64,000 nt of DNA from an uncultured bacterium (GTDB lineage Bacteria > Bacteroidota > Bacteroidia > Chitinophagales > Chitinophagaceae): contig CAIXQW010000256.1 in assembly GCA_903921675.1 (NCBI GenBank), forward strand, positions 12,958 to 76,957. The letters run 5' to 3'. Of the stretch, positions 1-60,776 are shown piece after piece. The position numbers and the translations under genes were made by a program. Under the pieces are notes generated by a model. The model was not told the DNA's origin, searched no databases, and saw only the letters and a list, made by a program, of their open reading frames with translations. The stretch's first letter is position 1; each line of letters opens with the position of its first letter.

Positions 1-153
1 TTTTTCTGTTGGGTAAGATAGTTTTACAGTTAAATGAATTACATCTCCAATCAATACTTCATTGCTATCTACTCCTACAGAAAATTGTACATCTTGTGCA
101 TATATTGCTATACCACAACAAATAAAAATGATATGTAAAAATAATAATTTCAT
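1..153 (-). CDS. partial CDS (first 51 codons, runs off the window start): signal-peptide protein, third gene of the moxR/DUF58 operon
   Basis: The ATG at 153-151 abuts the DUF58 stop codon. My translation is MKLLFLHIIFICCGIAIYAQDVQFSVGVDSNEVLIGDVIHLTVKLSYPTEK, with a hydrophobic leader ending A-Q. It is absent from the ORF track because it has no stop inside the window. Confidence 0.5.
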   Translation of the reverse strand, partial: MKLLFLHIIFICCGIAIYAQDVQFSVGVDSNEVLIGDVIHLTVKLSYPTEK

Positions 154-7460: not shown

Positions 7461-7540
7461 TAAAATAAAAATTTCCATTTTCACATATTCATAAGTTTTC
7501 AATAGACTATATTTTGCAGATAATAAAGTATTTTTACTGC

Positions 7541-10500: not shown

Positions 10501-10615
10501 TTTGAGCAATCGTACTTTTCCTAGTGCAGAAAACAAGCTAATTAATAGCATGGATATTCGTGGCAAAGCACAACAATATGTATATGAGAGTTTAGGTATT
10601 GCTAGTAGGAAATAG
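7541..10615 (+). CDS. fusion protein: GH3 (NagZ-like beta-N-acetylhexosaminidase) domain plus serine beta-lactamase/DD-peptidase-fold domain
   Basis: KHFPGHGNTDMDSHKDLP is the GH3/NagZ signature. The C-terminal half has the S-x-x-K motif ASVTK and a beta-lactamase-like HTGFTG. I prefer the ATG at 7541 (MHKFTLCLVALFVFLSTIVSSQ signal peptide) over the TTG at 7514 used in the track. Confidence 0.88.
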   Translation: MHKFTLCLVALFVFLSTIVSSQPANKSVKLPKPSVGINAWVDSIYNSLSLEQKIGQLFMIAAYSGGEKYNRQTIEKLITQNFIGGLIFMQGTAEAQAEQTNAFQKMSKVPLLIGMDAEWGLGMRLKGVDDFPRQIMLGAMKDTSLVYKMAQAIAYQCRRMGVHMDFAPDVDINNNPNNPVINFRSFGENKYAVARYATQYVKGLQDGGIIASAKHFPGHGNTDMDSHKDLPTISGSAKSLEDNELYPFREMINNQVGSIMIAHLQVPALDNTPNTPTTLSKKVVTDLLKNKYNYKGLIITDALNMSGVTKNRIPGELDYQAFMAGNDILLFSQDVSAAVKKISDAIENGTITEERLEESVKKILKAKYFVGLNKTRTISAENITTDLNQYTSSIRSLVAKEATTLLSDQYNILDKIRRNAAKKIAYVGIGTDAPNTFSKALNTIGISEMYFVNGNDANLANKLKDYDAVIIGIHNVALYPGKSFGLNISDIAIANALAKNKNSMLVLFGNPYAMKYFCDAKGAIVAYDEKPETQNVLAEIISGDFRAKGKLPVSVCPSYSAGSGIITLTNQLGEKDNTNPEVPREIKDIKKNDDKLLQLNCDNNSKDLIPCVKNIFHPVPVVCCFNPEAIGSNNDKLEKIDNLIENAIAKGAFPGCRILVAKEGKVFYDRSFGYTTFNKTQMVKENTLYDVASVTKVMATTLAVMKLYEQGKLSIENTLGDYLPITRGTNKSDIKLKDMLLHQAGLKSWIPFYKETLDSNKQQRKDIYSNSANGNYTVKVANNLYMNKHWTDTMWQRILDSPIGAKVYEYSDLDFIFLQKVVEKITGQSIDAYVEKEFYKPLGMSNTCFNPIKKGKPNASIAPTESDSYFRYQIIQGYVHDMAAAMFGGVSGHAGLFSTAGDISKVLQMLMNGGIYEGKRYFEKKTVDFFTTYKTTTRRGYGWDKTEPNTAKSNPTADNCSLLTFGHTGFTGTCVWADPTYNLQFIFLSNRTFPSAENKLINSMDIRGKAQQYVYESLGIASRK

Positions 10616-45905: not shown

Positions 45906-46850
45906 CTATCGATAATCTTTTGTTATAACAATCTTTCCGTTTTCATCAAACTGAAAAAAAGTTATAATGGGTAATGTTTTTGTTTGTTGTTTTTTGATAC
46001 TAAAATATTGGTATATTCCTTTTAGCACATACATTTTATCGCCTACTTTTTCAATCACTGTATTAAAATTTTTCGTGTCGCTGCTTTTTTGCCAAATATC
46101 ATTGTATCTAGTTTCTAGCTCTTCGCGGGTAGGATAACTGATATCCCAATACTGCTCCATGCTTGGTGAAAAATAAGAATAGATTGCATCAAAATTTTGC
46201 GATTCTTCTGCAGCTATTAGGTCATGAATATTTTGTATGTTTTGCCTATCAGCATCCGAGTAATTTTCTTCGGCATTATTCATTTGAAAAATAGAATCTG
46301 CTATTCGCTTTTCTTCGTTTGCCCTACGAATGTTATCTAAATTTGTAATGGCTTGCTCTGATTGTGGATCGGCAATACTTGGTGTGTTTGTAATTTCTGT
46401 AGGAGATGTGCTTGCATCTTCTGATAACTGAGCATTTCTATTAGATTGCATCCACCAAACGCCAAACCCAATCAAACCACCTATTAATAGCACACCCAAC
46501 AAAATAGCAATTGTATTGCTAGATTTTTTTTGCGGCACATAAGGCCTGGCTTGTTGTGTTTGATGCGGCTGCACTTGATGCGGCGAGTATGAAGCAGGCT
46601 GTGCAACAGGTGGCGGAGGTGTTGGTATTGGCGACACGGTGGCTCTGATAGCAGCTTCATACATTTGCTCGTAATTATTGCTATCAACACTGTTTAAATT
46701 CCAACTTGCATACAAATTTTGTAATTGTAGTTGAATATCTTGATCGGATAATGCACTCCATTTTTGTAGCAACTCTTGTGGTGCATTGCTGCCATTGCGT
46801 TGCAAATACAAATAATTAATGTAGCCGCGAATATTTAATTTATTAATCAT
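45906..46850 (-). CDS. bitopic membrane protein B: conserved cytoplasmic N-module, P/Q-rich linker, one TM helix, periplasmic C-domain
   Basis: 314 aa with no signal peptide. The N-terminus NIRGYINYLYLQRNGSNAPQELLQKWSALSDQDIQLQLQNLYASW is paralogous to the N-terminus of the 46867-48075 product. The helix is KK-SSNTIAILLGVLLIGGLIGFGVWW. Confidence 0.6.
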   Translation of the reverse strand: MINKLNIRGYINYLYLQRNGSNAPQELLQKWSALSDQDIQLQLQNLYASWNLNSVDSNNYEQMYEAAIRATVSPIPTPPPPVAQPASYSPHQVQPHQTQQARPYVPQKKSSNTIAILLGVLLIGGLIGFGVWWMQSNRNAQLSEDASTSPTEITNTPSIADPQSEQAITNLDNIRRANEEKRIADSIFQMNNAEENYSDADRQNIQNIHDLIAAEESQNFDAIYSYFSPSMEQYWDISYPTREELETRYNDIWQKSSDTKNFNTVIEKVGDKMYVLKGIYQYFSIKKQQTKTLPIITFFQFDENGKIVITKDYR

Positions 46851-46866
46851 GCCTTATGAAAAAAAT

Positions 46867-48075
46867 TTATAAATTTAAGTTTGAAATATCTGGTAATTTA
46901 CTTTTAATCGTATCTATTAAATCTTCTAAAAAATTATGAGGAATAGCTGGTTGCTTAAAATACATCACTCTGTTTTGTGTGTCTAGCACGCTGTATAGAT
47001 TCATACTTTTACCATTGCAATCATATATACCATACACCTTTTCTTTCGGAAAATATTTAAAAAATAAATCCCCAGTTAAACAATCAGCATCACTTTCTGG
47101 ATTTTCTACTATTCCAATTTTCTTAGGTTTTGCAAAAGAATTTTCTGCAAGATCGCCAAAAAAACGATAATAATAACCATCTGAAAGTCTTGCTATTACT
47201 GCAAAGCGTGTATTAGTAATTATTTCTTGTTTCAAAATACTTGTCAATTTTTTGCGAACATCTTTGCTAGCGCTAGAGCAGGCATTCATGATATATTTGC
47301 CTTGCAAATTATCATCATAACCCAAACTGCCAATGATTACTTTTCTGAAACGCAGCTCTAACTGATTTGCTTCTTCTGCATGTAATTGTCCAAACACAGA
47401 TTTGTATTGTTCAAACTCTTGCTTACTATCAGTTATAAAATTGGCATTTACAAAAGCAATATTTTCATTACTCTTCAATATAAATTGAACGAAATTACCA
47501 GCACCTATCATCACCTTTCTGTGTTTTTTAGGTTTGCCAGTGTTGTCAATTGTTCTTTCGTAAATATTATCATCTACAGCTTTTAATGTTTCAAAGCTTG
47601 GCACATCCATTTTTGTAGGAGGCTGCAAATCCATTCTGCCAATTACTACATTACTATCATTGCGCACACTTAAATTATTGGTGATGGCATATACATTTTT
47701 TAAATTATTAAATAAATAAAATTGATACACAACATAAGCCAATGGAATAAATAAGGCTAGAAAAATTAAACCTGTATAGCTTTTCTTAGGGCTTGGTGGC
47801 ACAATAGGATTTGGCGAAGATGGATAAACCGATTGCGTATTCTTTGGTGATGGAGGTATTACGCCACTTTTATTTTGCAATAAAAATTGCTGAATAGTTT
47901 GCTCTTGCTGTTGGGTAGTATATTGCCAATGCGTAAATAAATTTTGTAATTGAACAGCAATCTCAGCTTCTGGCACCGCTGCCCATTTATCTAACAATGC
48001 TTGCGGCGCTGCTGTTTTATTTTTTTGAAAAAATAAATAACTGATAAACGATATAATATTATTTTTGGTAATCAT
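46867..48075 (-). CDS. bitopic membrane protein A: conserved cytoplasmic N-module, Pro-rich linker, one TM helix, ~290-aa periplasmic domain
   Basis: 402 aa. The N-terminus is NIISFISYLFFQKNKTAAPQALLDKWAAVPEAEIAVQLQNLFTHW and the helix is KK-SYTGLIFLALFIPLAYVVYQFYLF. Its start overlaps the upstream stop as ATGA. Confidence 0.6.
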   Translation of the reverse strand: MITKNNIISFISYLFFQKNKTAAPQALLDKWAAVPEAEIAVQLQNLFTHWQYTTQQQEQTIQQFLLQNKSGVIPPSPKNTQSVYPSSPNPIVPPSPKKSYTGLIFLALFIPLAYVVYQFYLFNNLKNVYAITNNLSVRNDSNVVIGRMDLQPPTKMDVPSFETLKAVDDNIYERTIDNTGKPKKHRKVMIGAGNFVQFILKSNENIAFVNANFITDSKQEFEQYKSVFGQLHAEEANQLELRFRKVIIGSLGYDDNLQGKYIMNACSSASKDVRKKLTSILKQEIITNTRFAVIARLSDGYYYRFFGDLAENSFAKPKKIGIVENPESDADCLTGDLFFKYFPKEKVYGIYDCNGKSMNLYSVLDTQNRVMYFKQPAIPHNFLEDLIDTIKSKLPDISNLNL

Positions 48076-48530
48076 ATTATTTTCTTGGCATTTTCTGTTT
48101 TATCTAACAGTTTTATTAATACATCATTTGGTACAGTTACCGCACCGTTTTTAATTACAAATTGTGCTTGTAAACTTTTATTCGTTTCGTTGTATTGAAT
48201 CAAAAAACCATCTTTGGCTAGATTACATTTTAATAATGCATCATTGCCATTGAAAAAATCTTTTGTTACTTGATTGGCTTGCGTCATGCTTATATTTAAT
48301 TGACTGCTTGTTTTTGCAATAGTTGCCAAAGGTCCATAGGCTTTATTTACCAGCATTACAAATGTATCTACTTTCATTTGGTTGGCATTGTCTTTTTCAA
48401 AACGGTTTTGCTCTACTTTTTCCACATTGCTACTCGCAACACTTTTATTGGTACAAAAAATAAAATAACTAGCTGCTGCAATCACAGCAGCAATTCCAAA
48501 ATAAATAAAGGACGAAATATTTTTTTTCAT
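48072..48530 (-). CDS. N-terminally anchored small periplasmic protein
   Basis: 152 aa. MKKNISSFIYFGIAAVIAAASYFIF is the anchor. Its ATG directly abuts the stop of the 1824-aa gene. Confidence 0.55.
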   Translation of the reverse strand: MKKNISSFIYFGIAAVIAAASYFIFCTNKSVASSNVEKVEQNRFEKDNANQMKVDTFVMLVNKAYGPLATIAKTSSQLNISMTQANQVTKDFFNGNDALLKCNLAKDGFLIQYNETNKSLQAQFVIKNGAVTVPNDVLIKLLDKTENAKKII

Positions 48531-51500
48531 TTATGGTTGATTAAAATAATTAATAAATGAGGCTTGCAAAAACCCTTGATGAATAATTGTACGCAACATG
48601 CCCCAATCAAAGTCTTGTGTATTATCTGTTACAAAATAATACGAAAATACTTTTGTGCCTTGCCCAATATTTTCTGGCTTGGTTAAATCTTTATTAGTAA
48701 TGCTTACTATCAATCTGCGCGAATTACTTGTTTGGCTGCCACCTTCATTAATTGTGCCAGTTTTTGCATAAAAATAATAGCCTGTATGCTGTGCTTTTAA
48801 TGGCGCTAATTGGGTAGCGGTTCCAGCTGTAATTACATCTGCCATGCCTTTAAAAATATTGTTGGCCAAAAATTCGTTGTATTGGGCTCTTGTCCATGTG
48901 CTATCTAGCATCCAAGCAGTGTACTTGTTTTTCTTTGGTAGAATATGTAATTCGTAATTTTTATTTTGTGTCATTAATCCATTATACATCTCTAGCATTT
49001 TGTATGCGGACAGTTGATAAGGATAACCACCAAGTGTAGCAGTTTTTAAACCTAAATTAAAATTTTCGTTGATTTCATTTTTCTTTTTACTACTGATGTA
49101 ATGTCTATTTTTTTGCGGGAAAGCACTCTCTTCTGGAAAACTCCAAATAAAACTACTACTCTTGTTCTTATTTAGTGTAGCATAAATAGTACTGTCAGTA
49201 AAATTAGTTCTACTACTACTTAGCACACTCATATCGTTTTTGTCTTTGTCCTTGCAAGCCAATCCAGCATTTACTTCCAGCCCATTTACCAATACACTAT
49301 TTTCGTTTGCAAAATAAGATTGACCGCTTTTACTTTTATCGCTGCTTGGCCAATTGCCTTTTCCCTTTGCGTAATTAGGCAATGCATATTGCACACCATC
49401 TACAATTACTCTTGGAAATAAATTATTAGCACCGTACTTTGTAGTCAATATATTTTTAACATCTGCATGATGCATACTATCCATAAAATCTGCTTTAGGA
49501 TAGCTGCCTAAAAATAACATTACAGATTGATAATAATTACTAGATTTTCTGATATAATCACTCATGCCTTGCCCATCGTAAGAATCAGCATCTGGCTCCC
49601 AAGGTTTTGCCAATTTTAAACCTGCATAATAATTTTGTTCGCCAAGATTAGTGTAGCTCAATTTCATTTTCTCCCAACCTGCATTTACCTGACTAGCTAT
49701 TACACTAGCCATAAGCGGTTTAATGCTAGAACCTGGTCCAAGATGCATATGAATTAAATTTGCATTTGCCCATTGGTCACGCTCATTGCCAGTATTACTA
49801 AAAAAGAAATGTTTTTGTTGTAAATTATAAATAGCAGTTGCATTGTTAGGGTCTAATTGTTTTCTGTTCTTTACATAGTCATTCATCAATCTAATATTGC
49901 CATCTCCATCCGCTGCTATTACAGTAAATTTCATTTTTCTGCTTTGTCTATTTTTATAAGAATTATGTATTAGTGACTGTGTAGTATTGAACCAATTATA
50001 ATCCAGTGTAATGGCAATATTTTTATTCAATACAGAATCTTGTGTGTATACATTTTTCATCGCATTTGCAAAATGATACATCCAAAAATTATTTTCCTTT
50101 TGCGGATACACTGTTTTGTATTCGCCATTCAGCCATTTATTAGTAGCAAATAATGTAAGATTTTTATTAAACGAAATCTGAAAATGATTAGTACTAGCAT
50201 CTACCATTACTAAATCGTCCGCAGCAATTGTATGCACAAAATTATTAGCCTTTTGCTCCATATTTTTGGTTTGATTTTTGCAAATAGCAATATGTACTGG
50301 TTTGCCAATTTGATTTTGCACATTGATAATACCAATTGGTTCTGTAGCATTTACAAACCATGTTTTTGGCAACAAAGCAAGCTGCACTGCATTTATATTA
50401 TCACTTTTAAAATATGGTAATGCTACTGTAGTATTTATGCTATTACCATAATGTAAATAAGCTGTATTGCTTTCTGAAGGATTGGCTTCTGCAATATTGC
50501 CATTCCACACTTTTATATTTTCAGTAGCAGGCAATTCAAGGTATAAATTTTTATTATACACAGCTTCATATTTTCCTTGGTCATACACAATATACAATGG
50601 GCTGTTAGCACGCAATGCGCTACTCGGATTTTTTTCTAAAGCAGTTAAAATACTTTTGGTGTATATGTCATCTACCTTTTCTGACTTGAAGGTTTTATAC
50701 CTTTCATCAGTTGTTATTTTTTTAATTAAATCTGTGTAGGAATATTTGATGTGCTTGCTTTGCAAACTGTCTTGCAAACTAATAAGCATCTGATTGAAAG
50801 GTCCTTCAATATTTTCTTTGGTTTCGTTTACAATTACATTAAAATTATTATTGTTCAATTCATTAGAGCGCACTGTAGCATAAGCTACTAATACAATTAC
50901 ACCCATTAGTATTAAATATCTACTTAAGCCTAACTGTAAATTCATTTTTTTGGCATTATATGCCACTGGCGATTGTATTAACGTTAAGAAAAATAATAGC
51001 ATTGGCACCAATACACTTACTCTACTTGTTAAACTTAAGAATGGAAAATCTTGCCCAAAAAACACAAAACGATTAGTAGCTGTAAGCCATACAAATAAAC
51101 TAATGGTAAATAAAATAAGTAATGGAATTAATCCTGCATAACTATCTACATCAAAATGCGAAGTATACTCTTCTGCACTATCCAATCGAATTTTGTAACT
51201 CAATAAATAAATAATCATTGGCAATGCAAGCAACACTAATAATAATATCATGGTCATTTGTCCAAGTTCGGAAATAATAAATCTTGCAACAACTACATCA
51301 CGCGTTTGGGTATTGTAGTTTACACCTACCTTGCTAAAAGCACGCAAGTTAATTTGTTTATCATTGTCGTAGGGTTTGGTTATGTAGGTATTGATGAACC
51401 ATTGATTTTCTGCAGTTTCAATAATTTTGCGAGTATTAAAACTATTGTAGGCATTATTAACAAGCAAACTACTAATGGGCTGATGAATGATAGAAGCACG

Positions 51501-54005
51501 AAATTGCACATGTTTAATAGCATCAGTGATTTTTTTATCTGCAACGTTTCTGGTATAAGGAATTAGCAAAATAATAAAATAGATAATAGCTGTTCCTGCA
51601 GAAGCGTAAAATAATTTGCTTTTGTTTTTAAATAAATATAAACATCCTACAACTGCTAAAAGTAATAATAAACCTACCCATAATTTGAATATTAGTAAAT
51701 AATAAAACAGCGATTTAAAACCCAAAATAAATAAATACAATACCAAACCAATTGCACCATAAATCCAATAGTTCCAAGGCTTGGTAAACATTTCTACAAA
51801 TTTGCTATTGCTGCCATCAAATGATTTTTTGAAAAAATTTAGTAATACATTTTTTAGCAATACAAATAATATAAATAAAATGCAAAAGCCTCTATCTGCA
51901 ATGGCAAAAAATAAAATAGTGCTAGCAGTGATAATAAAAGTTGGATTGTAAATAAAATAATAAGCGAATACGCGAATGTACTTTACAACCTTATTTTCTG
52001 GAGCATTGATTGATGGCACGCTGGCCTCAAAATATTGGTTGGCCTTAGCACTAAAAAAATGATAGGATAATAATGGTAAAATTACATCTATAATTCTGCG
52101 CAAAAATTCCACATGAACTATAAAATGCAAAAGCAATAAACCAAGCATTAAGATTACAAATACTTTATTAATATTACTTGGTGTATTTAATTTCCATTTA
52201 TCAGATTTTAAAAGCGTGGTTTCAAAAACTGAAGGCTTGTATTTTTTTAATAAGCGGAATGTAACAAGTGCTGCCACAATGCCTGTAGTAAATAGTAGCG
52301 TTACAGGAAAAGGCAATGCAATGCCAAACAAACTAAAATCGAATCCTATCAATGTATTTTCGAATTCGTATTTAGAAATATTTTCTAAAGGTGGGAAAGT
52401 AGCAATGCGCCAATACATAATAAAGCGCACTATCAGTAGTGCATATACAGCTGTCCAAATAATTGGCTCTATGCGATGCAATTTATTACTGCGTGCAAAA
52501 AATAGCAAGCCACAAAATAATAAAAACAAATAAGTAGCATAACTTATAATTTTATTGTAGCTAAATCCATTATCCGAAAAATCTCTTAATTCAAATAAAT
52601 AATCAACACCAGCATCTTGCGTGCTAAGCCAAAACGATTTATTTATTTTTTTGAAAGATGCACCTTTGTTGACATCTGCATAAGTAGCACTAAGCAAATG
52701 TTGCGGCGTGTGAGAAGTAAATTCCATTTGGCCTTGCACAGCATAATTGCTACGCAGATTAGCATGCGAAAAATAAAACCCTTCTTTTAATGGGTGCGTT
52801 ATTACATCATCATAGTTGGTAGCAATAAAACGAATATGTTTATCGCCATGATGTTGCTGCCCAGGATGCGTCAATAAATAGTTTTGCGGAAAATCAAAAA
52901 CCAAAGCTGTTTTGTTTTCTATCTTATCAAAAAATAATTTTTCGTTGGAATGATTAAACCCAATATGAAATTTTTTGTTGAAGTCTATTGCTGCTTGTGT
53001 AGTAAGATTGGTTGTAGCTTTATTGCCATCTGCCTTTAACGTAAATCCGTTTTCTATACAAGCCTTATCTGGAAATAGTGCATAGGATTTATTTTCTGCT
53101 TCATCATAATTTGCAATCAAATACGTTTCATCCATCTCTGCCAAAATTTGTTCTAGCAAATGTTGCGATTCTGCTTTTTGGCTTTTACAATTTTCTGCTA
53201 CTGCAAATAAATTGTATAGGCTTTTTCCATTGTGCAGTTCTTCATCTTCTATTTCCAAAACATCATTATATGGATTCGGCAAATTTAATTCTGCTAATAA
53301 ATCTGCATCTGCACAATGCAATTGAATCGTATATTTTACATTACGCTTATCATTTCCTTTTAATTTATTCCAAACACTTACATCACTAGTTTGCATATTT
53401 ACATCAATGCTAGTAGTATTGTTTTGCAAACTAAACTGATTGGCAATTTTTGCAGCAAATACATTATTCAATAATTTGTACTTCTTTTCTTTGCCATCAC
53501 TTACTTGCATAAAGATGGGTGTAAATACATTTTGTGTATGTAGGTACACTTTTCCATTTTGTTGCTTGAATTGTATACTACCTTCTGCATGCAAAGAGTC
53601 TGCTTCTGTGTATTGAAAATGCAAATCATTATCAAACCCAATTGCTTTGTTGCTAATGCCGTAATGATCATTATTAAAATACCAAGGCTGGTTGGTACTA
53701 GGATTAATAATTTTTTTTACAGCAATTATCGAAAAAATAAAAACAATTGCAAGCAATGCTAGGCTATACAAATTGGTTCTTTGTTTTGCAAAATTTGCTA
53801 AATGCATCATCGCATTTATATCGCCATTAGGCAATGTACTTGCTTTGGATTGTACTTGCTCTTCTGTAGTTAATTGCAAAATATAAAACACGCAACTACC
53901 TACAATAGCTACTGTAAGCATAGTACTGATGGCATTGCCCAGAAAAAAATTAATTGCTATCAAACCAAGGCTTGCAGCAATTAATCCAATTTTTTTTACA
54001 CTCAT
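48531..54005 (-). CDS. giant polytopic protein: 3 TM helices, ~390-aa ectodomain, SEDS-like multi-TM core, TM anchor, and a class-B-PBP-like ectodomain with a complete transpeptidase motif set
   Basis: 1824 aa. SxxK is GPGSSIKPL (Ser1427, nt 49725-49727), SxN is KSSNYY (1488-1490, nt 49536-49544), and KTG is YAKTGTI (Lys1748, nt 48762-48764). The SEDS-like motifs are TRDVVVARFIISELGQM (nt 51258-51305) and FPFLSLTSRVS. Confidence 0.72.
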   Translation of the reverse strand: MSVKKIGLIAASLGLIAINFFLGNAISTMLTVAIVGSCVFYILQLTTEEQVQSKASTLPNGDINAMMHLANFAKQRTNLYSLALLAIVFIFSIIAVKKIINPSTNQPWYFNNDHYGISNKAIGFDNDLHFQYTEADSLHAEGSIQFKQQNGKVYLHTQNVFTPIFMQVSDGKEKKYKLLNNVFAAKIANQFSLQNNTTSIDVNMQTSDVSVWNKLKGNDKRNVKYTIQLHCADADLLAELNLPNPYNDVLEIEDEELHNGKSLYNLFAVAENCKSQKAESQHLLEQILAEMDETYLIANYDEAENKSYALFPDKACIENGFTLKADGNKATTNLTTQAAIDFNKKFHIGFNHSNEKLFFDKIENKTALVFDFPQNYLLTHPGQQHHGDKHIRFIATNYDDVITHPLKEGFYFSHANLRSNYAVQGQMEFTSHTPQHLLSATYADVNKGASFKKINKSFWLSTQDAGVDYLFELRDFSDNGFSYNKIISYATYLFLLFCGLLFFARSNKLHRIEPIIWTAVYALLIVRFIMYWRIATFPPLENISKYEFENTLIGFDFSLFGIALPFPVTLLFTTGIVAALVTFRLLKKYKPSVFETTLLKSDKWKLNTPSNINKVFVILMLGLLLLHFIVHVEFLRRIIDVILPLLSYHFFSAKANQYFEASVPSINAPENKVVKYIRVFAYYFIYNPTFIITASTILFFAIADRGFCILFILFVLLKNVLLNFFKKSFDGSNSKFVEMFTKPWNYWIYGAIGLVLYLFILGFKSLFYYLLIFKLWVGLLLLLAVVGCLYLFKNKSKLFYASAGTAIIYFIILLIPYTRNVADKKITDAIKHVQFRASIIHQPISSLLVNNAYNSFNTRKIIETAENQWFINTYITKPYDNDKQINLRAFSKVGVNYNTQTRDVVVARFIISELGQMTMILLLVLLALPMIIYLLSYKIRLDSAEEYTSHFDVDSYAGLIPLLILFTISLFVWLTATNRFVFFGQDFPFLSLTSRVSVLVPMLLFFLTLIQSPVAYNAKKMNLQLGLSRYLILMGVIVLVAYATVRSNELNNNNFNVIVNETKENIEGPFNQMLISLQDSLQSKHIKYSYTDLIKKITTDERYKTFKSEKVDDIYTKSILTALEKNPSSALRANSPLYIVYDQGKYEAVYNKNLYLELPATENIKVWNGNIAEANPSESNTAYLHYGNSINTTVALPYFKSDNINAVQLALLPKTWFVNATEPIGIINVQNQIGKPVHIAICKNQTKNMEQKANNFVHTIAADDLVMVDASTNHFQISFNKNLTLFATNKWLNGEYKTVYPQKENNFWMYHFANAMKNVYTQDSVLNKNIAITLDYNWFNTTQSLIHNSYKNRQSRKMKFTVIAADGDGNIRLMNDYVKNRKQLDPNNATAIYNLQQKHFFFSNTGNERDQWANANLIHMHLGPGSSIKPLMASVIASQVNAGWEKMKLSYTNLGEQNYYAGLKLAKPWEPDADSYDGQGMSDYIRKSSNYYQSVMLFLGSYPKADFMDSMHHADVKNILTTKYGANNLFPRVIVDGVQYALPNYAKGKGNWPSSDKSKSGQSYFANENSVLVNGLEVNAGLACKDKDKNDMSVLSSSRTNFTDSTIYATLNKNKSSSFIWSFPEESAFPQKNRHYISSKKKNEINENFNLGLKTATLGGYPYQLSAYKMLEMYNGLMTQNKNYELHILPKKNKYTAWMLDSTWTRAQYNEFLANNIFKGMADVITAGTATQLAPLKAQHTGYYFYAKTGTINEGGSQTSNSRRLIVSITNKDLTKPENIGQGTKVFSYYFVTDNTQDFDWGMLRTIIHQGFLQASFINYFNQP

Positions 54006-54011
54006 ATTGGC

Positions 54012-55079
54012 TTATTGAATCTGATAACCCATGTATGCTAACCCTTGCGGAATAGCCACTTGATTATCTTTTAATATTTGTATGATGGTTTTTATTTCGT
54101 TTGGTATTGCATCTGCAGGTGTAGATGCGCTGATGCTATTTTGCTTTTCTTGTGCAGATAATTGTTCACCTTTCATTTGCTTTACATTATAGTCGTCGCT
54201 ACCTTGGCGGCGCTCTGTTTTGGTATGTGTAATAGCAATGTACTGCACTAATATTTGCATTGCCAAAGAAAGTGCTTCAGACTTTTGTTGTTTATTTAAT
54301 GCCGCTTTTGCAGGGTTTACCAAATTCAATAATGCGTTTTCAAAATAGGCTGCATCTGCATCGCGCACTTCTTTTAGTTGTTGTTGCAAATCGCGCAATT
54401 GCTCTAGCAACCCATGATTAGTAGCTTGCAATTGTACAATTTGTTGATTGGCATTGGTAATATCATGGCTGATAGATGTGTTGATAGATGAATTTTCTGT
54501 ACTAGGATTTTTAGAAGAAGATTTCATTTTTTCTCTAATCAATAAACCAGTTAGCAAAGCTGTAATTCCTGCTAAACTCCAAAGCAATACATCACTATTC
54601 TTTTTTTCTTTTGGTAGCAAATCGCTGCCATATTCTACAGTGGTTTGGTTTTCCGGATTCGCTTCTGAAGTTGGATCAACATTTGCAGTAGCTCCACTTT
54701 CTTTTTCGTTTACAAACTTTATATTGCCTCCTTTATCTGCTGCACGATTGATCAATTGCTCCAACAAAGGCATGCCTGCATATTTTTTTGCATCTACAGT
54801 ATCGTACTGCACTTTTAAATCTTGCTGCTGTGTAGTTGTAAACTGCAATAAATTTACCTTGCCTACATCTACATTATTTTTTGCTCGCCACATATTTTTT
54901 GCATCTTTTGCTATCGAAAACGAGTCGGTATTTATATTGCAAGATATTACACAGTATTTTTCGTTTACACGTATAGATGCATTGTATGGATAATCTTTTA
55001 GCTTGCGCACATGATCGTTTTGTGCTACTACAGTTGTGGCAGAAAATAATGTAAGCCCAATAATAATTCCAAGTTTCAT
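54012..55079 (-). CDS. type I single-pass membrane protein: ~150-aa periplasmic domain, one TM helix, ~175-aa cytoplasmic coiled-coil tail
   Basis: Signal peptide MKLGIIIGLTLFSATTVVAQ and helix VLLWSLAGITALLTGLLI followed by REKMK. Heptad-like QQIVQLQATNHGLLEQLRDLQQQLKEVRD follows. Confidence 0.6.
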   Translation of the reverse strand: MKLGIIIGLTLFSATTVVAQNDHVRKLKDYPYNASIRVNEKYCVISCNINTDSFSIAKDAKNMWRAKNNVDVGKVNLLQFTTTQQQDLKVQYDTVDAKKYAGMPLLEQLINRAADKGGNIKFVNEKESGATANVDPTSEANPENQTTVEYGSDLLPKEKKNSDVLLWSLAGITALLTGLLIREKMKSSSKNPSTENSSINTSISHDITNANQQIVQLQATNHGLLEQLRDLQQQLKEVRDADAAYFENALLNLVNPAKAALNKQQKSEALSLAMQILVQYIAITHTKTERRQGSDDYNVKQMKGEQLSAQEKQNSISASTPADAIPNEIKTIIQILKDNQVAIPQGLAYMGYQIQ

Positions 55080-55098
55080 AATATGTTGCAGTGTTTAA

Positions 55099-57708
55099 TT
55101 AGAATAATAAATCGTTTGTAGTTGGTGGCGGAGGAGGTGGTGGCGTATTGATATCAAATAACAATGGATTGAAAGTAGTATTAGTTTGTTTGGCAGTAAC
55201 AGGCAATCCTTTTACATCATCATTTAAGCATCTTAAATAATTTGTATTGATATAGTTTGGAAATAATGATGGAACAATCAATTTCAACTCTACTTCATCA
55301 TAATCATGAATTACAGATAATGGAATTATTTTTTCTACTTTGCCTTGCAGCATTCTGCGCACTTTAAAACCTGTGCTTGTAAAATTGATGGTGGCTTTAC
55401 TTGCAGCTTGCACATTATCTGCAATAGATTTATTGCCTAAGTTATAGGCAGTTGCGCCAATAATAAATTCGCTTGTTTGCAAGCCTTCTAACTGCAAGTT
55501 GGCATCTTTTTTTACAAATACTTTTTTATCTGTATTGCTTGCTTCTATGCTACCTACTAAATATTCAAACCACTTTTTGCTGGTCACTTTTGCTTCTTTG
55601 ATTGGCGGCGGGGCTTCGCCTTTTATAATTTGAATTGGGTGCCCAACTACATCTGTATTTTGTTGGATAGATTTATTAAACACACCTTTGATGCAAATAT
55701 CTTTCAGCTCGCTACCAGATAACAATGCAATTTTATTTTCGGCAATTTGCAATCTAGTTTGCAGTTTGCTTTTCATCATAGCGGCTAATGGCGCAAACAT
55801 AAATCCTCTACCTGTAAGCACTACACCATCAAAGTCGTGGTCTGTTTTGTTTTGTTGAATCATGCTAAGATGTGCAATTACTTTTTCGGTAATGGCTTCG
55901 CATACATCATTGATATAGCCAAACAAATCGCCACCAAATTCCATTTGTCCAAGCAAATCTATAATGGTTTGAAAATCTACATCATTGCTTGCTACATTAC
56001 TCCAAGTATTATCTAGTTTTTTTGCATTTGCCCAATCTGCAAATACTACATCTACATTATCTGTTTTAAAATTAAATTTTAGGCGCTCTATTTCTGTATA
56101 AAACTTAGTAATCAAAACCAAGTTATTACCTTTTAGCTCGTCTATAATTTTTGTATTAATATATCTATTCACGCCACTTTGCCCATTACTAGCTTCGCGT
56201 ATGTAATGCAATAGTGTTTCAAAAATTGCATTGGTAATTAAATTACCTGCACCAGCAAATCCGTTTCTATAAATTGGCTGTAGGTCAAAAATATTTTCTG
56301 CGCCTGTTCTAATAATAGAAAAGTCTGTAGTTCCTTTTCCTACATCTACTATTATATAATCTTTGTTTTTATTTACAACTGCGTTTTTTCTATTGATGTA
56401 CCCAATAAAAGAAGCATCGCTTTCAGAGATGGTCAATACTTCCCAAGCTAATAATTTTCCTTTGTAAGCATCGCTATTAGCTAGTTCTGCAAATATTTTA
56501 TTGAGTTGAATTTTTGTGTTTTGAATATTAGCACTGTCATATATATTTGGTACTAATAATAGTAATCTTACAAAACGAGTAGCATTTTTATAACGCAGAA
56601 ATTCTTTTTGCAAGAAGGACTCTAGCATCGTTTTTAAAATGGTATTATTTACTTTTTGTTTTATTTCTTTTAAAGTAAGCGGTAAAGTATGATTGGCAGC
56701 ATCATTAAATTCAAAATTAATACTGCTTAAAATTTCGTTGTGTTGATGAATTATTTTTAGGTTTGGCAATTGATGAAATTTGTTATTCACCAACTCTTGC
56801 ATACTATTGGTATCTATCAATAGTTTTAGATTTTCTGCTTGCGATTTTATAAATTCGCTTGCATCAATATCTTCGTAATTATCTGTAAGATGCTCGCGCA
56901 AAAAGAAAAGTGACTTATAAAAATTACTTCCTTTGTCTTCTTGATAATAACTAGCTTGCTCATTGCGTTCTATCCATTTGTTATTAGTATAAAACAATTT
57001 TATTTGTTGAAATAAATTTTCGATACTTGGCTTATCCTCGTATATCACATTGCCTACTTCGTAACGCTTAGTAGCCATTTGGCTACTTTCGCTACCAAAG
57101 TCTAATGCAATACCCAAAAACTGAGATGGATGCGCCAAAGAAACTCCAATGGCAAATACATACTCTTGTTGGTTTGCATGCAATATTATTTTTACGGCCA
57201 ATTCATTACTTTCAAACAACTGTGCAGTAATAGGTGCAGTATGTACACAACTTAATTGCACACCATTGGCATCGCTGCGTAATTGCACTCCTATTTGCGT
57301 ATTAATATTGCCCAACACTTTTGCTATTATTGGAACCGAAGAAATGATCGGATTTGGCTTTGGTTTTCCTGCAGTAGCATTTAAAATATCTTCGTAAAAG
57401 TGCTCTTTCTTTTTTTCTTCTATAATAGGAGCTTCTTGCTTCAGTAATTGTTCCTTTGCATACAAATGGATAGTTGCTTCATTGCCTAACAAATTACCAT
57501 CTACCTCTATATCGTGTAATGCAATGTCAAATTCATTTTCTACAAAACAAGTAAACATGTTTTTTGCATTTATTTGCATTACTTGCACAGCATCACTATC
57601 TGCTAGTTCTACAATAAAATGTTGCGGATTAGATAGTTTTGCAGCGTTATTAAATTCTGCATTTATTTCTCTGCGATGATTGATAGTAATAGGTATTGCG
57701 TATTGCAT
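55099..57708 (-). CDS. cytoplasmic actin/Hsp70 (ASKHA)-fold ATPase with ~195-aa N-terminal and ~170-aa C-terminal extensions
   Basis: 869 aa with no signal peptide or TM helix. Phosphate-1 is IALDFGSESS (Asp203), phosphate-2 is IIVDVGKGTTDFSII (Asp455), and the adenosine-like motif is GVVLTGRGFMFAPL. The C-terminus is PPPPPPPTTNDLLF. Confidence 0.72.
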   Translation of the reverse strand: MQYAIPITINHRREINAEFNNAAKLSNPQHFIVELADSDAVQVMQINAKNMFTCFVENEFDIALHDIEVDGNLLGNEATIHLYAKEQLLKQEAPIIEEKKKEHFYEDILNATAGKPKPNPIISSVPIIAKVLGNINTQIGVQLRSDANGVQLSCVHTAPITAQLFESNELAVKIILHANQQEYVFAIGVSLAHPSQFLGIALDFGSESSQMATKRYEVGNVIYEDKPSIENLFQQIKLFYTNNKWIERNEQASYYQEDKGSNFYKSLFFLREHLTDNYEDIDASEFIKSQAENLKLLIDTNSMQELVNNKFHQLPNLKIIHQHNEILSSINFEFNDAANHTLPLTLKEIKQKVNNTILKTMLESFLQKEFLRYKNATRFVRLLLLVPNIYDSANIQNTKIQLNKIFAELANSDAYKGKLLAWEVLTISESDASFIGYINRKNAVVNKNKDYIIVDVGKGTTDFSIIRTGAENIFDLQPIYRNGFAGAGNLITNAIFETLLHYIREASNGQSGVNRYINTKIIDELKGNNLVLITKFYTEIERLKFNFKTDNVDVVFADWANAKKLDNTWSNVASNDVDFQTIIDLLGQMEFGGDLFGYINDVCEAITEKVIAHLSMIQQNKTDHDFDGVVLTGRGFMFAPLAAMMKSKLQTRLQIAENKIALLSGSELKDICIKGVFNKSIQQNTDVVGHPIQIIKGEAPPPIKEAKVTSKKWFEYLVGSIEASNTDKKVFVKKDANLQLEGLQTSEFIIGATAYNLGNKSIADNVQAASKATINFTSTGFKVRRMLQGKVEKIIPLSVIHDYDEVELKLIVPSLFPNYINTNYLRCLNDDVKGLPVTAKQTNTTFNPLLFDINTPPPPPPPTTNDLLF

Positions 57709-58087
57709 AATTTGATGAAGTACAATGAAGATATAAAAGTAAATAATAAAAAGGAGTACGGAAGCTTTTTAAGAAAAATTTAGCGAATGAATCTATCTAA
57801 AATTGCTTTCTTTTTTAGTAACTAAACTATTGGTTTTATGTTTATAGACAAGAAGAAACTTTTTTCAGTTATTAAATACTTTAAAAAATACCCGAGCTTA
57901 ATTATGAAAATCTGCATAAATAAGCAACCTTGGCAAGATGCGCATCTTCTTAAAAAGCTTTAAAATCAATAATAGCTTACATTGTGGCTGCTATTACAAT
58001 ACCTCCTCTTCATTTTTTATTCTACTTGATTTTCTATAATTTAAATTCCATGTTGGCTAAATAATTATTAGCAATTAATTGAATTTC

Positions 58088-58095
58088 CAAAAATA
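58088..58095 (-). promoter_or_regulatory. only TAnnTTTG match (TATTTTTG) in the 426-bp region upstream of the ATPase gene
   Basis: The plus strand reads caaaaata. It lies 379 nt upstream of the ATG at 57708 and 39 nt downstream of the eptA-like stop. A chance match is possible. Confidence 0.25.
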
Positions 58096-58134
58096 GAAAT
58101 AAATATTCCCACTAATTGTTTAATGTTTTTTTCA

Positions 58135-59957: not shown

Positions 59958-60776
59958 ATGAATTTATCCCATTTTTTTGCAGATGGTCAGAATATTTGGC
60001 AAATACTTTTGTTTGCTGTTGTGTTTTTGGTTTGTTGGAACTTAGAATATTTATTTGGTGTATCTAAAAACTACAACAAGTGGAAACATTCTTTTACCAA
60101 TGCTTTATTCATCATACCTGGTGGCATTATGCAATTGATATTAGGTGTATTATTTGTAAAAGTATTATTGTGGGAAAATGCAAATGGAGTAGGGTTATTA
60201 CCTCGATTGAATTTGGCTAGTAATTGGCAGCAAATAGTTGTAACCTTTATTGTATTAGATTTCTTTTATTGGATGTATCATTTTTTAATGCATAAAATTG
60301 GCTTTGCGTGGCGTTTTCATGCAGTGCATCATAGCGATAAAGTAATGAATGTAACTACATCTCTGCGTGAGCATCCAGGAGAAACATTAATACGCTTAGG
60401 GCACTATATGCTTGCAGTATGGATGCTTGGCACTAGTTTTTGGATTATTACTCTACATCAGTTTATACAAATTGTAAGTAAAATAATTGTGCATAGCAAT
60501 TGGCGCTTGCCAGATAATGTAGATAAATGGGTTAGCTATGTATTTCTTACGCCTAATATGCACCATGTGCATCACCACGAGGAACAGCCTTATACGGATA
60601 GTAACTACGGCGATTTGTTTAGCATTTGGGATAGAGTATTTGGTACATTCCGCTATTTGCCAGCACACGAAGTGCGCTTTGGCTTAGATGTAGAATTGTT
60701 TGATAACGAAGAACAATTAAAGTTTAAGAAACTAATTAAAGTACCTTTTACAAAAGCAAATTTATCTAACGAATAG
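59958..60776 (+). CDS. fatty acid hydroxylase / sterol desaturase superfamily membrane protein
   Basis: 272 aa. The His boxes are HFLMHK, RFHAVHH and HHVHHH, with hydrophobic N-terminal helices. Confidence 0.85.
   Translation: MNLSHFFADGQNIWQILLFAVVFLVCWNLEYLFGVSKNYNKWKHSFTNALFIIPGGIMQLILGVLFVKVLLWENANGVGLLPRLNLASNWQQIVVTFIVLDFFYWMYHFLMHKIGFAWRFHAVHHSDKVMNVTTSLREHPGETLIRLGHYMLAVWMLGTSFWIITLHQFIQIVSKIIVHSNWRLPDNVDKWVSYVFLTPNMHHVHHHEEQPYTDSNYGDLFSIWDRVFGTFRYLPAHEVRFGLDVELFDNEEQLKFKKLIKVPFTKANLSNE

Follow-up and report, generated by a model that had tools for sequence, protein, structure and literature searches.

The closest described counterparts of the locus analyzed here are the SEDS-bPBP pairs RodA-PBP2, FtsW-FtsI and SpoVE-SpoVD, together with fusions of such pairs. 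Natural single-chain SEDS-pedestal-TPase fusions have already been described as 'bifunctional bPBPs' of ~950 aa, among them a GTase-pedestal-TPase protein of Rhodococcus jostii and a 1341 aa protein of Pedobacter ginsengisoli with two GTase domains (PMC12516126); given this precedent, a SEDS-bPBP fusion as such is not new. The locus also encodes an ATPase nearest to the Hsp70 family (DnaK/BiP/Hsp110), whose association with bitopic proteins invites comparison with MreB-RodZ, FtsA-FtsN and PilM-PilN. Neither databases nor the literature yielded a name for the six-gene system or a described system of matching composition, as the preliminary description of this DNA had anticipated. The cassette is probably an accessory, Bacteroidota-specific machine for the synthesis of peptidoglycan, or of a peptidoglycan-like polymer, in which bitopic adaptors would place a divergent, fused SEDS-like/bPBP-like synthase under the control of an Hsp70-like ATPase in the cytoplasm.

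The six genes lie within a 64,000-nucleotide stretch of DNA (the window). All are on the minus strand, as are all features given below, and each open reading frame has an ATG start: g1, the ATPase (869 aa, 55099-57708), g2 (355 aa, 54012-55079), g3, the giant (1824 aa, 48531-54005), g4 (152 aa, 48072-48530), g5 (402 aa, 46867-48075) and g6 (314 aa, 45906-46850). The successive gaps from g1 to g6 are 19, 6, 0, -4 and 16 nt, with the start of g5 overlapping the stop of g4 (ATGA). The preliminary description gave exactly these coordinates, strand, sizes and gaps, and its topologies for the six proteins agree with hydropathy. An uninterrupted 1824-codon reading frame in DNA of ~32% G+C, a composition that is flat across the window, cannot reasonably be put down to chance, and other genomes encode g3 homologues of full length. 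The sole long gap in the cluster is the 426 nt of non-coding DNA 5' of g1 (57709-58134), where the promoter of the cassette is presumably located; a σ70 consensus scan finds fewer sites there than in shuffled sequence, this consensus being uninformative for Bacteroidota.

That these genes act as one conserved unit is borne out by their co-occurrence. The five-gene cassette (ATPase, g2, giant, g4, g5) is conserved across Bacteroidota, in at least 47 species (47 of about 185,000 species representatives), including Taibaiella, Edaphocola, Emticicia, Lacihabitans and others, with a size pattern of ATPase, ~260-410 aa, ~1800-1860 aa, ~140-165 aa and ~365-445 aa. Only these five genes form the conserved core; the sixth gene of the originally proposed unit, g6, is confined to the Taibaiella/Edaphocola branch. 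In 39-40 of the 47 genomes the giant gene has a g1 homologue upstream of it. In at least one lineage (L003/L004) the ATPase gene is separated from the giant gene and the cassette is interrupted by AlbA_2/HATPase_c_4 and DUF4160/DUF2442 genes; at another locus (L129) no ATPase gene is found within 8 kb of the giant gene. Identity to the sampled loci is ~41-47% for Taibaiella/Edaphocola, 34-39% for Emticicia/Lacihabitans and 23-30% for Sediminibacterium and Saprospiraceae. The flanks differ between genera, and the genomic contexts are unrelated. The immediate neighbors in the window are, as originally reported, genes for an EptA-like protein of the sulfatase family (PF00884, 1e-36) and an AhpC/TSA-redoxin (TlpA-like) protein; they are conserved at none of the 47 loci and are excluded as members of the cassette.

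The part of g3 that can be assigned most directly is its C-terminal ectodomain (residues 1330-1824 and the stop codon, 48531..50018). Its S1426-x-x-K1429, S1488-x-N1490 and K1748-T-G1750 motifs show 100% conservation across 148 homologues, and hhalign against a bPBP profile gives a probability of 94.8% (P 5e-8) with the active-site serine aligned, in line with the PBP fold and the SxxK, SxN and KTG motifs originally proposed. The domain matches class A and class B PBPs (FtsI, PBP1b, PBP2); hhalign finds no match to PBP5 (LMW carboxypeptidase, class C) or to AmpC. The g3 domain itself falls below the Pfam threshold, and PF00905 weakly matches 15 of 42 giant homologues (8/16 and 7/26; best E 1.5e-6). 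Judged by motifs and profiles, this is a genuine HMW-PBP-type DD-transpeptidase domain with intact catalytic motifs.

The likeness of the g3 membrane core to SEDS proteins is of a more distant kind. Hydropathy and the positive-inside rule predict ~17 TM helices, of which TM7-16 (residues 609-1010, 50976..52181) constitute a 10-TM unit with, as in SEDS proteins, a large periplasmic loop preceding the last three helices. This loop (99 aa, residues 816-914) bears invariant R836, Q900, D903, R908 and E913; the motif F982-G-Q-D-x-P988-x-x-S991 sits in another periplasmic loop (978-994). Against a SEDS profile of 68 sequences, hhalign scores TM7-16 at 32.1 (P 0.002, probability 13%) over RodA residues 15-368, and the part from the loop to the end of the module at 33.4 (P 5e-4, probability 31%); the corresponding controls score 12-27 (60 shuffles), 15-19 (reversed profiles) and 12-14 (unrelated membrane proteins). 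The alignment to RodA is collinear and spans the full length: R836..P843 falls on RodA R210..P217, Q900/D903/E913 on TQ..HTD262FIF..E270, and G984xxxP988xxS991 on GxPLPxxS, so that the invariant Arg, Asp and Glu and the GxxxPxxS of g3 coincide with SEDS catalytic motifs; the number of TM helices between motifs is that of SEDS proteins, and all the motifs lie in predicted periplasmic loops. A single further TM helix separates this module from the PBP domain, as a SEDS + bPBP fusion requires, and the overall order (polytopic module, one TM helix, linker, HMW-PBP TPase) is that of the known pairs and fusions.

Other methods do not register this likeness. Pfam and NCBIfam give no SEDS signal for g3; the matches listed from an exhaustive HMMER profile search (241 in all) are giants or giant fragments, with no flood of RodA/FtsW proteins; a SEDS HMM fails to separate the giants from reversed decoys; and Foldseek with a poor AF2 model of the core (pLDDT 62.5) returns no SEDS or GT-C structure. 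In the hhalign alignment the 'QPSE..K' motif of SEDS proteins has no counterpart in the N-terminal half of the module. Since Pfam, NCBIfam, HMMER and Foldseek are negative, it is profile-profile comparison that carries the link to SEDS. Of the SEDS-like core initially proposed, what stands is a remote resemblance that exceeds its controls and in which motifs, number of TM helices and topology correspond: TM7-16 appear to resemble SEDS polymerases weakly, but specifically, and we infer a SEDS-type polymerase activity from this.

Outside these two modules g3 departs considerably from known SEDS-bPBP fusions. It is about twice as large and has six extra TM helices and an additional periplasmic domain of 380 aa; its SEDS module goes unseen by Pfam, InterPro-type models and HMMER, its pedestal is undetectable, and instead of mreBCD/rodZ or a dcw cluster its genetic partners are four orphan bitopic proteins and the Hsp70-like ATPase. 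Three N-terminal TM helices (residues 1-100, 53706..54005) are followed by a periplasmic N-ectodomain (101-483, 52557..53705) with conserved P102, N111, P163, N180 and G349, which matches neither the bPBP profile nor Pfam. The extra TM4-6 (484-608, 52182..52556) bear an invariant W532-R533 and F537-P539 motif and have no SEDS counterpart, the N-terminal core scoring without significance against the SEDS profile in hhalign. TM17 (1023-1044), the equivalent of the bPBP anchor helix, opens the region preceding the TPase (1011-1329, 50019..50975), a periplasmic linker or pedestal-like segment. In hhalign against the bPBP profile, residues 1046-1290 show no significant match to the pedestal; the alignment does reach the end portion of the FtsI/PBP2 pedestal, placing 'YPxxxxxxW/H' on the bPBP 'RxYPxG'.

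The product of g1 is a cytoplasmic ASKHA ATPase, with fold and motifs nearest the Hsp70 nucleotide-binding domain (NBD). It has no TM helices by hydropathy, and consists of N-terminal β domains (~1-85 and ~128-192), a nucleotide-binding core (~195-700), a C-terminal β domain (~729-800) and a disordered, Pro-rich tail. The phosphate-1, phosphate-2 and adenosine motifs noted at the outset are present (D203xG205, D455xGKGTTD462, G483/G486/G488 and G633R634) and invariant in 46 homologues. An AF2 model (pLDDT 82.9, pTM 0.82) searched against the PDB with Foldseek returns Hsp70 family members as all of its top 50 matches (best E 3.5e-11, probability 1.0 for the best match, TM up to 0.61 on NBD-only entries), and hhalign ranks DnaK (residues 4-420, P 6e-4) ahead of MreB (1.4e-3) and FtsA (4.4e-3), whose weak profile matches fall at the phosphate-2 region. 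The initial assignment to the ASKHA ATPases is upheld by fold and motifs; the parallel with actin-fold MreB that accompanied it gives way to Hsp70 on both Foldseek and hhalign evidence. DxGxxxS, VPxxF/YxD, xExxAxxxxY, DxGxGTxDxSII and LxGxx align along DnaK 4-420. Unlike Hsp70 proteins, however, g1 has no PF00012 match and no recognizable substrate-binding domain or EEVD-type tail, carries ~190 aa of N-terminal β domains, a different C-terminal β domain and large NBD insertions, and is encoded without DnaJ/GrpE-type partners.

Four membrane-anchored proteins complete the cassette. In g2 an N-terminal hydrophobic leader, a putative signal peptide, and a periplasmic domain precede a TM helix (163-181); the helical tail that follows in the cytoplasm has a conserved C-terminus, gives weak coiled-coil-type matches at residues 181-282 and is shared with an L003 orthologue (27% identity, E 5e-18). 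Nearly all loci have a gene of 260-410 aa at this place. In nearly all loci, too, the giant gene is followed by one of 138-165 aa, corresponding to g4, which has a single predicted N-terminal TM helix (8-26) anchoring a periplasmic protein with invariant D55, Y65, N94, P134 and D136. The order of g5 (found by tblastn at 41/47 loci) is a 50-aa cytoplasmic N-module, a Pro-rich linker, TM 103-121 and a periplasmic domain; g6 repeats this arrangement (TM 113-131), ending in a periplasmic domain unlike that of g5. The N-module, previously recognized as shared, is 50% identical between the two over residues 1-50 (E 3e-14) and is common to g5 and g6 across the family. Judged by its N-module, g6 is a lineage-specific accessory paralogue of g5: it has an orthologue in Edaphocola flava (E 6e-52), and a separate g6-type gene of 285-307 aa is confined to Taibaiella/Edaphocola-type loci. 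A weak SnoaL_2 match (E 0.022) suggests a possibly NTF2-like periplasmic domain in g6. Neither g2 nor g5 matches any family or PDB entry, and g4 has no credible match; none of the four shows homology to known proteins, MreC, MreD, RodZ, FtsN and PilN included, which reduces the RodZ and MreC (and MreD) parallels of the preliminary description to analogies of topology.

A core as divergent as that of g3, lacking 'QPSE..K', does not disclose its substrate, and Wzy/WaaL-like proteins represent a wider fold class that includes SEDS. The core might instead polymerize or ligate a different lipid-linked envelope glycan, with the PBP domain serving as a DD-carboxypeptidase or endopeptidase or attaching the product to peptidoglycan, so that the machine builds or anchors a non-peptidoglycan surface polymer. 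The extra TM helices, the large extra periplasmic domain and the envelope-modifying EptA-like neighbor would suit such a role. However, the g3 core reaches 32 against the SEDS profile, compared with 14.4 against the Wzy_C protein that the window itself encodes; it is the synthetic HMW PBPs that the TPase resembles, not PBP5, an LMW carboxypeptidase; a polymerase fused to a TM helix and then a TPase follows SEDS-bPBP logic; and the eptA neighbor is conserved at none of the 47 loci. We consider this reading unlikely. PBP-fold domains also act as sensors in BlaR1/MecR1, and a cytoplasmic ATPase with several bitopic proteins would make a plausible relay for a g3 that binds D-Ala-D-Ala peptides, β-lactams or muropeptides and signals through its core, a BlaR1/MecR1-like logic with different parts that the negative HMMER, Foldseek and SEDS HMM results, leaving SEDS activity unproven, would accommodate. 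But the invariant charged residues of the core coincide with SEDS catalytic motifs and lie in periplasmic loops, off the cytoplasmic face, which suggests periplasmic catalysis; none of the six proteins has an output domain (protease, kinase, DNA-binding); and BlaR1-type domains are class D β-lactamase-like, whereas that of g3 is HMW-PBP-like, making a sensor decidedly improbable.

The rarity of the cassette among species representatives, its varying flanks and the genes inserted in the L003/L004 lineage raise the further notion of a mobile conflict or defense module, its patchy distribution and variable context arising by horizontal spread. We give this very little credence: there is no PADLOC family match above low-complexity noise; in the window no integrase, transposase or tRNA boundaries lie near the cassette, base composition is flat and the context is housekeeping (mutL, dnaN, murA/aroA-type, T9SS cargo); the catalytic residues match those found in cell-wall enzymes; and identity falls with taxonomic distance among the sampled loci, which fits mainly vertical descent.

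If the cassette is, as we favor, an accessory peptidoglycan synthesis machine, g3 would be its catalytic heart, the single-chain equivalent of a SEDS-bPBP pair. At the periplasmic face, TM7-16 would polymerize a lipid-linked disaccharide-peptide, and D903 of the large periplasmic loop would serve as the catalytic acid; TM17 and the linker would carry the HMW-PBP TPase, through whose S1426 stem peptides would be cross-linked; and what g3 has in addition, namely its extra N-terminal TM helices and a periplasmic domain of 380 residues, would be specific to the family. In the cytoplasm, g1 may bind g5 and g6 through their N-modules, g2 through its tail, or all three; by binding and hydrolyzing ATP it would, via these bitopic adaptors, bring about the assembly, positioning or activation of the synthase in the periplasm. 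Such coupling is proposed by analogy with PilM-PilN, FtsA-FtsN or MreB-RodZ, to which g1 is likened here from sequence and models: it too is encoded with bitopic proteins comprising a cytoplasmic N-module, linker, TM helix and periplasmic domain, although the actin-like filament formers are more distant from it than Hsp70 is. The catalytic logic would be of a known kind; the protein family and its set of partners are new.

The cassette lies on the minus strand and comprises six genes: g1 (55099-57708), encoding an 869-aa ATPase; g2 (54012-55079), a 355-aa bitopic protein; g3 (48531-54005), the 1824-aa giant; g4 (48072-48530), a 152-aa N-anchored protein; and g5 (46867-48075) and g6 (45906-46850), bitopic proteins of 402 and 314 aa. 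From g1 to g6 the intergenic gaps are 19, 6, 0, -4 and 16 nt. A 426-nt non-coding stretch lies 5' of g1, whose upstream neighbour is a sulfatase-family EptA-like gene, and 55 nt separate g6 from a downstream AhpC/TSA-redoxin gene. The six ORFs of the preliminary description, with their strand, sizes and spacing, were all found exactly in place, its EptA-like and TlpA-like neighbours are present, and its topologies for the six proteins agree with hydropathy. An antisense ORF within g2 (54448-54993, plus strand; 181 aa, low-complexity and hydrophobic) was judged a spurious shadow ORF. A scan for sigma-70 promoters and terminators returned fewer promoter-like sites than shuffled sequence and was uninformative; Bacteroidota promoters differ from the sigma-70 consensus.

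A word-indexed protein collection yielded 17 full-length homologues of the giant, and an exhaustive search with a profile of its membrane core yielded 241 clusters at 50% identity; the matches listed from the latter, evident fragments aside, are 1700-2100 aa long, with the core at a constant position. The ATPase has at least 206 homologues, from Taibaiella, Edaphocola and Emticicia. In a scan of one genome per species the giant is present in 47 species, all from Bacteroidota lineages; its hosts are Taibaiella, Edaphocola, other Chitinophagaceae, Sediminibacterium, Emticicia, Lacihabitans, a Sphingobacteriales MAG and Saprospiraceae, and Spongiimicrobium salis (Flavobacteriaceae) is among its distant representatives. 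An ENA metagenome protein, P0001, is 98% identical to the window giant. The closest giant in the genome collection is only 47% identical to it, so the source organism appears to have no close relative among GTDB species representatives.

The ATPase gene is found just upstream of the giant gene in 39-40 of the 47 loci, and most of the loci lacking it are contigs that end at that point. The order ATPase, 260-410-aa protein, giant, 138-165-aa protein, 365-445-aa protein is nearly universal among the 47, and a separate g6-type gene (285-307 aa) is restricted to the Taibaiella/Edaphocola branch. Flanking genes vary between genera: tblastn with the window's EptA-like, redoxin and FA-hydroxylase copies found counterparts at none of the 47 loci, and these neighbours (the redoxin being the TlpA-like gene of the preliminary description) were rejected as members of the system. 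Conserved order, branch-limited g6 and unconserved neighbours together establish the unit as a core of five genes with an optional sixth. Thus the proposed co-conservation of six genes holds for five, across 47 species, but not for g6. An FA-hydroxylase-family gene adjoins the ATPase gene in two Taibaiella-type loci (L001, 5744-6355; L137, 8285-8896), and that of the window (59958-60776, plus strand) is divergent from the ATPase gene and one gene away; this proximity could be fortuitous or could reflect a loose link to lipid functions.

Variant loci were also encountered. In the metagenome contigs L003 (6884-17851) and L004 the cassette is interrupted by a 664-aa AlbA_2/HATPase_c_4 gene between the g2-like and giant genes and by a DUF4160/DUF2442 pair between the giant and g4-like genes, and no ATPase gene adjoins it; in a sister sample, L138, an ATPase of the family (P0060) is located at the end of a contig. 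No ATPase gene lies within 8 kb of the giant in L129, a Sediminibacterium MAG. There and in L132 a giant ORF that is either shorter than usual or truncated precedes genes of 148, about 340 and about 825 aa. The last of these, ORFs of about 824 aa considered as displaced ATPases, were rejected because the ATPase HMM did not match them; this branch may therefore use a different partner. Three cassette contigs entitled 'uncultured Bifidobacterium sp.' and 'Cyanobium sp.' (L102, L121, L108) are probably mis-binned or mislabelled MAGs.

The C-terminal domain of the giant carries SxxK, SxN and KTG motifs in the order and spacing expected of a class B penicillin-binding protein (bPBP), and S1426, K1429, S1488, N1490, K1748, G1750 and T1751 are 100% conserved in an alignment of 148 giants reaching down to about 20% identity. 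The transpeptidase profile PF00905 does not match the window protein at E <= 0.1; weak matches occur in 8 of the 16 close homologues and in 7 of the 26 distant ones (best E 1.5e-6). Against a bPBP profile built from E. coli PBP2 and FtsI with 44 metagenomic PBP2 C-termini, hhalign returns a probability of 94.8% (P 5e-8), with the 'LTLD..LQ', 'vvv.D..tG.ilam...P..dPN', SxxK and SxN elements in register; SxxK and SxN fall on those of PBP2. As single sequences, FtsI, PBP1b and PBP2 align with P 4e-5 to 7e-4, and PBP5, AmpC and the window's own beta-lactamase-fold protein give no match (P 0.2-0.6 for the three, 0.2-0.4 for PBP5 and AmpC). TM17 is placed where the N-terminal anchor of a bPBP belongs. 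Only the last ~40 residues of the pedestal (PF03717) align, including a 'YPxxxxxxW' element; residues 1046-1290 have no match in profile searches, and neither g3 alone nor its family profile retrieves anything from the PDB sequences. By the criterion of these alignments the C-terminus is a transpeptidase domain of HMW-PBP type in which catalysis is strongly selected for, and the PBP-type ectodomain of the preliminary description is borne out. The beta-lactamase-fold protein just mentioned (7514-10615, plus strand; 1033 aa) is a GH3 (NagZ-like) N-domain fused to a PF00144 serine-hydrolase C-domain that is unrelated in sequence to the g3 PBP domain, and may be a cell-wall recycling enzyme.

For the membrane part of the giant, hydropathy, AF2 helices and the positive-inside rule yield 17 TM helices, with the N-ectodomain (residues 101-483), a 99-residue loop (816-914), a loop at 978-994 and the entire C-terminal domain predicted to face the periplasm. 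Every invariant charged residue of the core (R836, D903, R908, E913 and D986) is found within these periplasmic loops. Neither PF01098 nor NCBIfam models of the SEDS (RodA/FtsW-type glycan polymerase) family match g3 or its homologues (43 proteins: the window's g3 and 42 others), the exhaustive core search listed only giants and fragments and never reached RodA/FtsW, and a SEDS HMM run with hmmsearch fails to tell the 148 giants from reversed decoys. Given 12 aligned sequences, AF2 models the core poorly (pLDDT 62.5), and Foldseek found only noise with this model, with no match at E < 0.5.

The SEDS signal comes from hhalign with a 68-sequence profile (E. coli RodA and FtsW with 66 metagenomic RodA), with which g3 residues 610-1010, essentially TM7-16, are collinear with RodA 15-368 (score 32.1, P 0.002, probability 13%); the part of the module from the loop to its end scores 33.4 (P 5e-4, probability 31%). 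Control scores are 12-27 for 60 block-shuffled profiles, 15-19 for reversed profiles and 12-14 for the unrelated membrane proteins MraY, Wzy_C, EamA and EptA. The Wzy_C control, a 426-aa O-antigen-ligase-like membrane protein of the window (2618-3898, minus strand), scores 14.4. In the alignment, itself weak, R836, D903 and E913, each 100% conserved in the 148 giants, fall on RodA R210, D262 and E270: 'QFR836ASIIHQP843' lies on 'RQR210VMMLLDP217', and 'TQ900TRD903VVVARFIISE913LG' on 'TQ..ERHTD262FIFAVLAE270ELG'. RodA D262 (FtsW D297) is the putative catalytic Asp of the large periplasmic loop. Ahead of TM16, g3 'G984QDFP988FLS991LTS' aligns on RodA 'GVPLPLVSYGGS', and 'FFGQDFPFLSLTS' (G984, P988 and S991 being 95-100% conserved) on the SEDS motif 'GxPLPxxSYGGS'. 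The 'YGG' part of this motif is missing in g3, the SEDS 'QPSE..K' motif has no counterpart in the alignment, and the N-terminal half of the module has no conserved SEDS residues and no SEDS signal.

In helix number and predicted topology the ten-helix unit agrees with the SEDS fold, and its motifs have the same TM-helix spacing as in SEDS: helix seven of the unit is followed by the Arg motif, the Asp-Glu motif comes directly before helix eight, the GxxxPxxS loop is two helices further on, and one helix follows that loop. Exactly one more helix, TM17, comes after the SEDS-like unit, as is needed for the fused bPBP-type domain to reach the periplasm. The SEDS-like core of the preliminary description is favoured by hhalign scores above controls and by the aligned motifs, but not by Pfam, NCBIfam, HMMER or Foldseek; SEDS-type ancestry and function of the core are likely, not established. 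One distant member of the family, P0173 (WP_394746730.1, from S. salis), bears the NCBI name 'SLC5/6 family protein', probably a misannotation, as nothing supports a solute symporter.

The g1 protein, for its part, has no TM helix. Pfam and NCBIfam scans of it give only sub-threshold matches to DDR, MreB and PRTRC-D around residues 421-498. Such matches recur among the 46 family members examined, 27 of which hit DDR, 16 MreB and 3 FtsA (MreB at 13-18 bits with cut-offs of 27 to 365), and PF00012 (Hsp70) matches none of the 46; the family profile retrieves nothing from the PDB sequences. In the 46-member alignment the phosphate-1 motif D203-F-G205-S-E-S, the phosphate-2 motif D455-x-G-K-G-T-T-D462, G483/G486/G488 and the adenosine motif G633-R634 are all invariant. 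The AF2 model is confident (pLDDT 82.9, pTM 0.82), and its 325 PDB matches at E <= 1e-3 are led by BiP (6asy, E 3.5e-11), then DnaK, Ssb and Hsp110; the best 50 are all of the Hsp70 family, MreB being absent from them, and TM-scores reach a maximum of 0.61, on NBD-only entries. The family profile covers DnaK residues 4-420 in hhalign with the classic Hsp70 signatures aligned (P 6e-4), ahead of MreB (1.4e-3), FtsA (4.4e-3) and controls (0.1-0.5). Two RNase-H-like lobes bearing phosphate-1, phosphate-2 and adenosine motifs are what defines an ASKHA ATPase, and g1 has them. Hsp70 chaperones possess the Hsp70 profile and a C-terminal substrate-binding domain, whereas g1 lacks the former and its model lacks the latter; beyond the nucleotide-binding core it has N-terminal beta domains of about 190 residues, a small C-terminal beta domain and a disordered Pro-rich tail. 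From MreB/actin-like filament formers (PF06723) it differs in falling below the profile threshold and in being outranked by DnaK. Fold, motifs, hhalign ranking and the missing substrate-binding domain therefore identify g1, at the level of sequence and model, as an ASKHA ATPase of Hsp70-like type and not an MreB orthologue. The actin-fold ATPase of the preliminary description survives as to fold and motifs; its kinship with MreB does not, the Hsp70 NBD being closer.

The remaining proteins are orphans. By hydropathy g2 has a leader and one TM helix, g4 one N-terminal TM helix, and g5 and g6 one central TM helix each, after a Pro-rich linker. With their orthologue profiles, the four match only TM, coiled-coil and low-complexity noise in Pfam, NCBIfam, PADLOC and PDB; a match of the g4 orthologue profile to GFP among PDB sequences is spurious. 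No MreC, MreD or RodZ homologue is found among them with Pfam, NCBIfam and PDB profiles, so that the four resemble the accessory components of the Rod complex (MreB-MreC-MreD-RodZ-RodA-PBP2) in topology only; the parallels drawn with RodZ, MreC and PilN are architectural analogies and do not amount to homology. A common 50-residue N-terminal module is shared by g5 and g6 (50% identity, E 3e-14), with the pattern NI..FI.FLY.K....P..LL..W..L.D.EI...L..L...W across the family, and the cytoplasmic tail of g2 is likewise conserved at its C-terminal end; these are the sole conserved cytoplasmic elements available for contact with g1.

The best-supported reading is that the cassette specifies a single-chain SEDS-like/bPBP-like peptidoglycan synthase governed by a cytoplasmic Hsp70-like ATPase. 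The giant would act as a polymerase on lipid II as well as a transpeptidase, and its assembly, placement or activity would be under the control of the ATPase, acting via the bitopic proteins and presumably through the conserved cytoplasmic elements. The more specific notion that ATP is used to drive or gate the synthase through bitopic adaptors, which would be the first such case, is tentative. That the giant instead polymerises or ligates another glycan and carries a PBP-type peptidase is doubtful: the SEDS score of its core exceeds its score against Wzy_C, although the 'QPSE..K' motif is absent. A PBP-based sensor is less probable still.

That the cassette is a mobile conflict module is very unlikely. 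Its neighbours change from genus to genus. The window is ordinary Bacteroidota chromosome of flat composition (about 33% G+C), carrying mutL, dnaN, an EPSP-synthase-family gene, a TonB receptor and T9SS-tail cargo proteins, and PADLOC defence models match none of g1, g3, g4 and g5, matching g2 and g6 only through low complexity or coiled coil (E >= 3e-4).

Fusions of this general kind have been catalogued by InterPro domain architecture: 117 SEDS-pedestal-TPase chimeras of about 950 aa and, in the same 2025 catalogue, a 1341-aa Pedobacter protein with two SEDS domains (PMC12516126). Those chimeras are canonical, whereas the g3 family is about 1800 aa long and extremely divergent; with a SEDS module that carries no database signature and a TPase that mostly stays below threshold, it would be missed by a search of that type. 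Searches of the literature and of model libraries found no described system of this composition and none naming the cassette, as first surmised; members carry the NCBI names 'hypothetical protein', 'ASKHA family protein' and 'SLC5/6 family protein'. What had been observed in the sequence is confirmed, and its interpretation is partly supported. The catalytic logic is of a known kind (SEDS-bPBP); novelty lies in the g3 family itself, in its size and additional domains, and in the Hsp70-like and orphan proteins that accompany it.

Bacterial wall growth universally has SEDS-bPBP pairs at its core, and these are also major targets of antibiotics; the scaffolds linked to their activation until now are, to our knowledge, actin-like (MreB, FtsA) or tubulin-like. 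The analysis defines a closed family, about 240 sequence clusters of about 1800-aa proteins annotated as 'hypothetical' or mislabelled, that appear to fuse both activities in extremely divergent form and are as a rule accompanied by an Hsp70-like ATPase and orphan bitopic proteins. If that is confirmed, SEDS polymerase sequence space reaches far past the profile databases, structural work gains a natural single-chain synthase, and cytoplasmic ATP hydrolysis would be coupled to periplasmic wall synthesis in a new way. The hypothesis is directly testable, since cultured hosts exist (Taibaiella koreensis, Edaphocola flava and Emticicia species). On the tentative reading in which ATP drives or gates the synthase, a periplasmic peptidoglycan polymerase would for the first time be seen under direct, nucleotide-dependent control by an ATPase of chaperone type in place of an actin- or tubulin-like cytoskeleton; the machine might serve a specialised morphogenetic programme in Bacteroidota, such as resting cells, filamentation or envelope repair.
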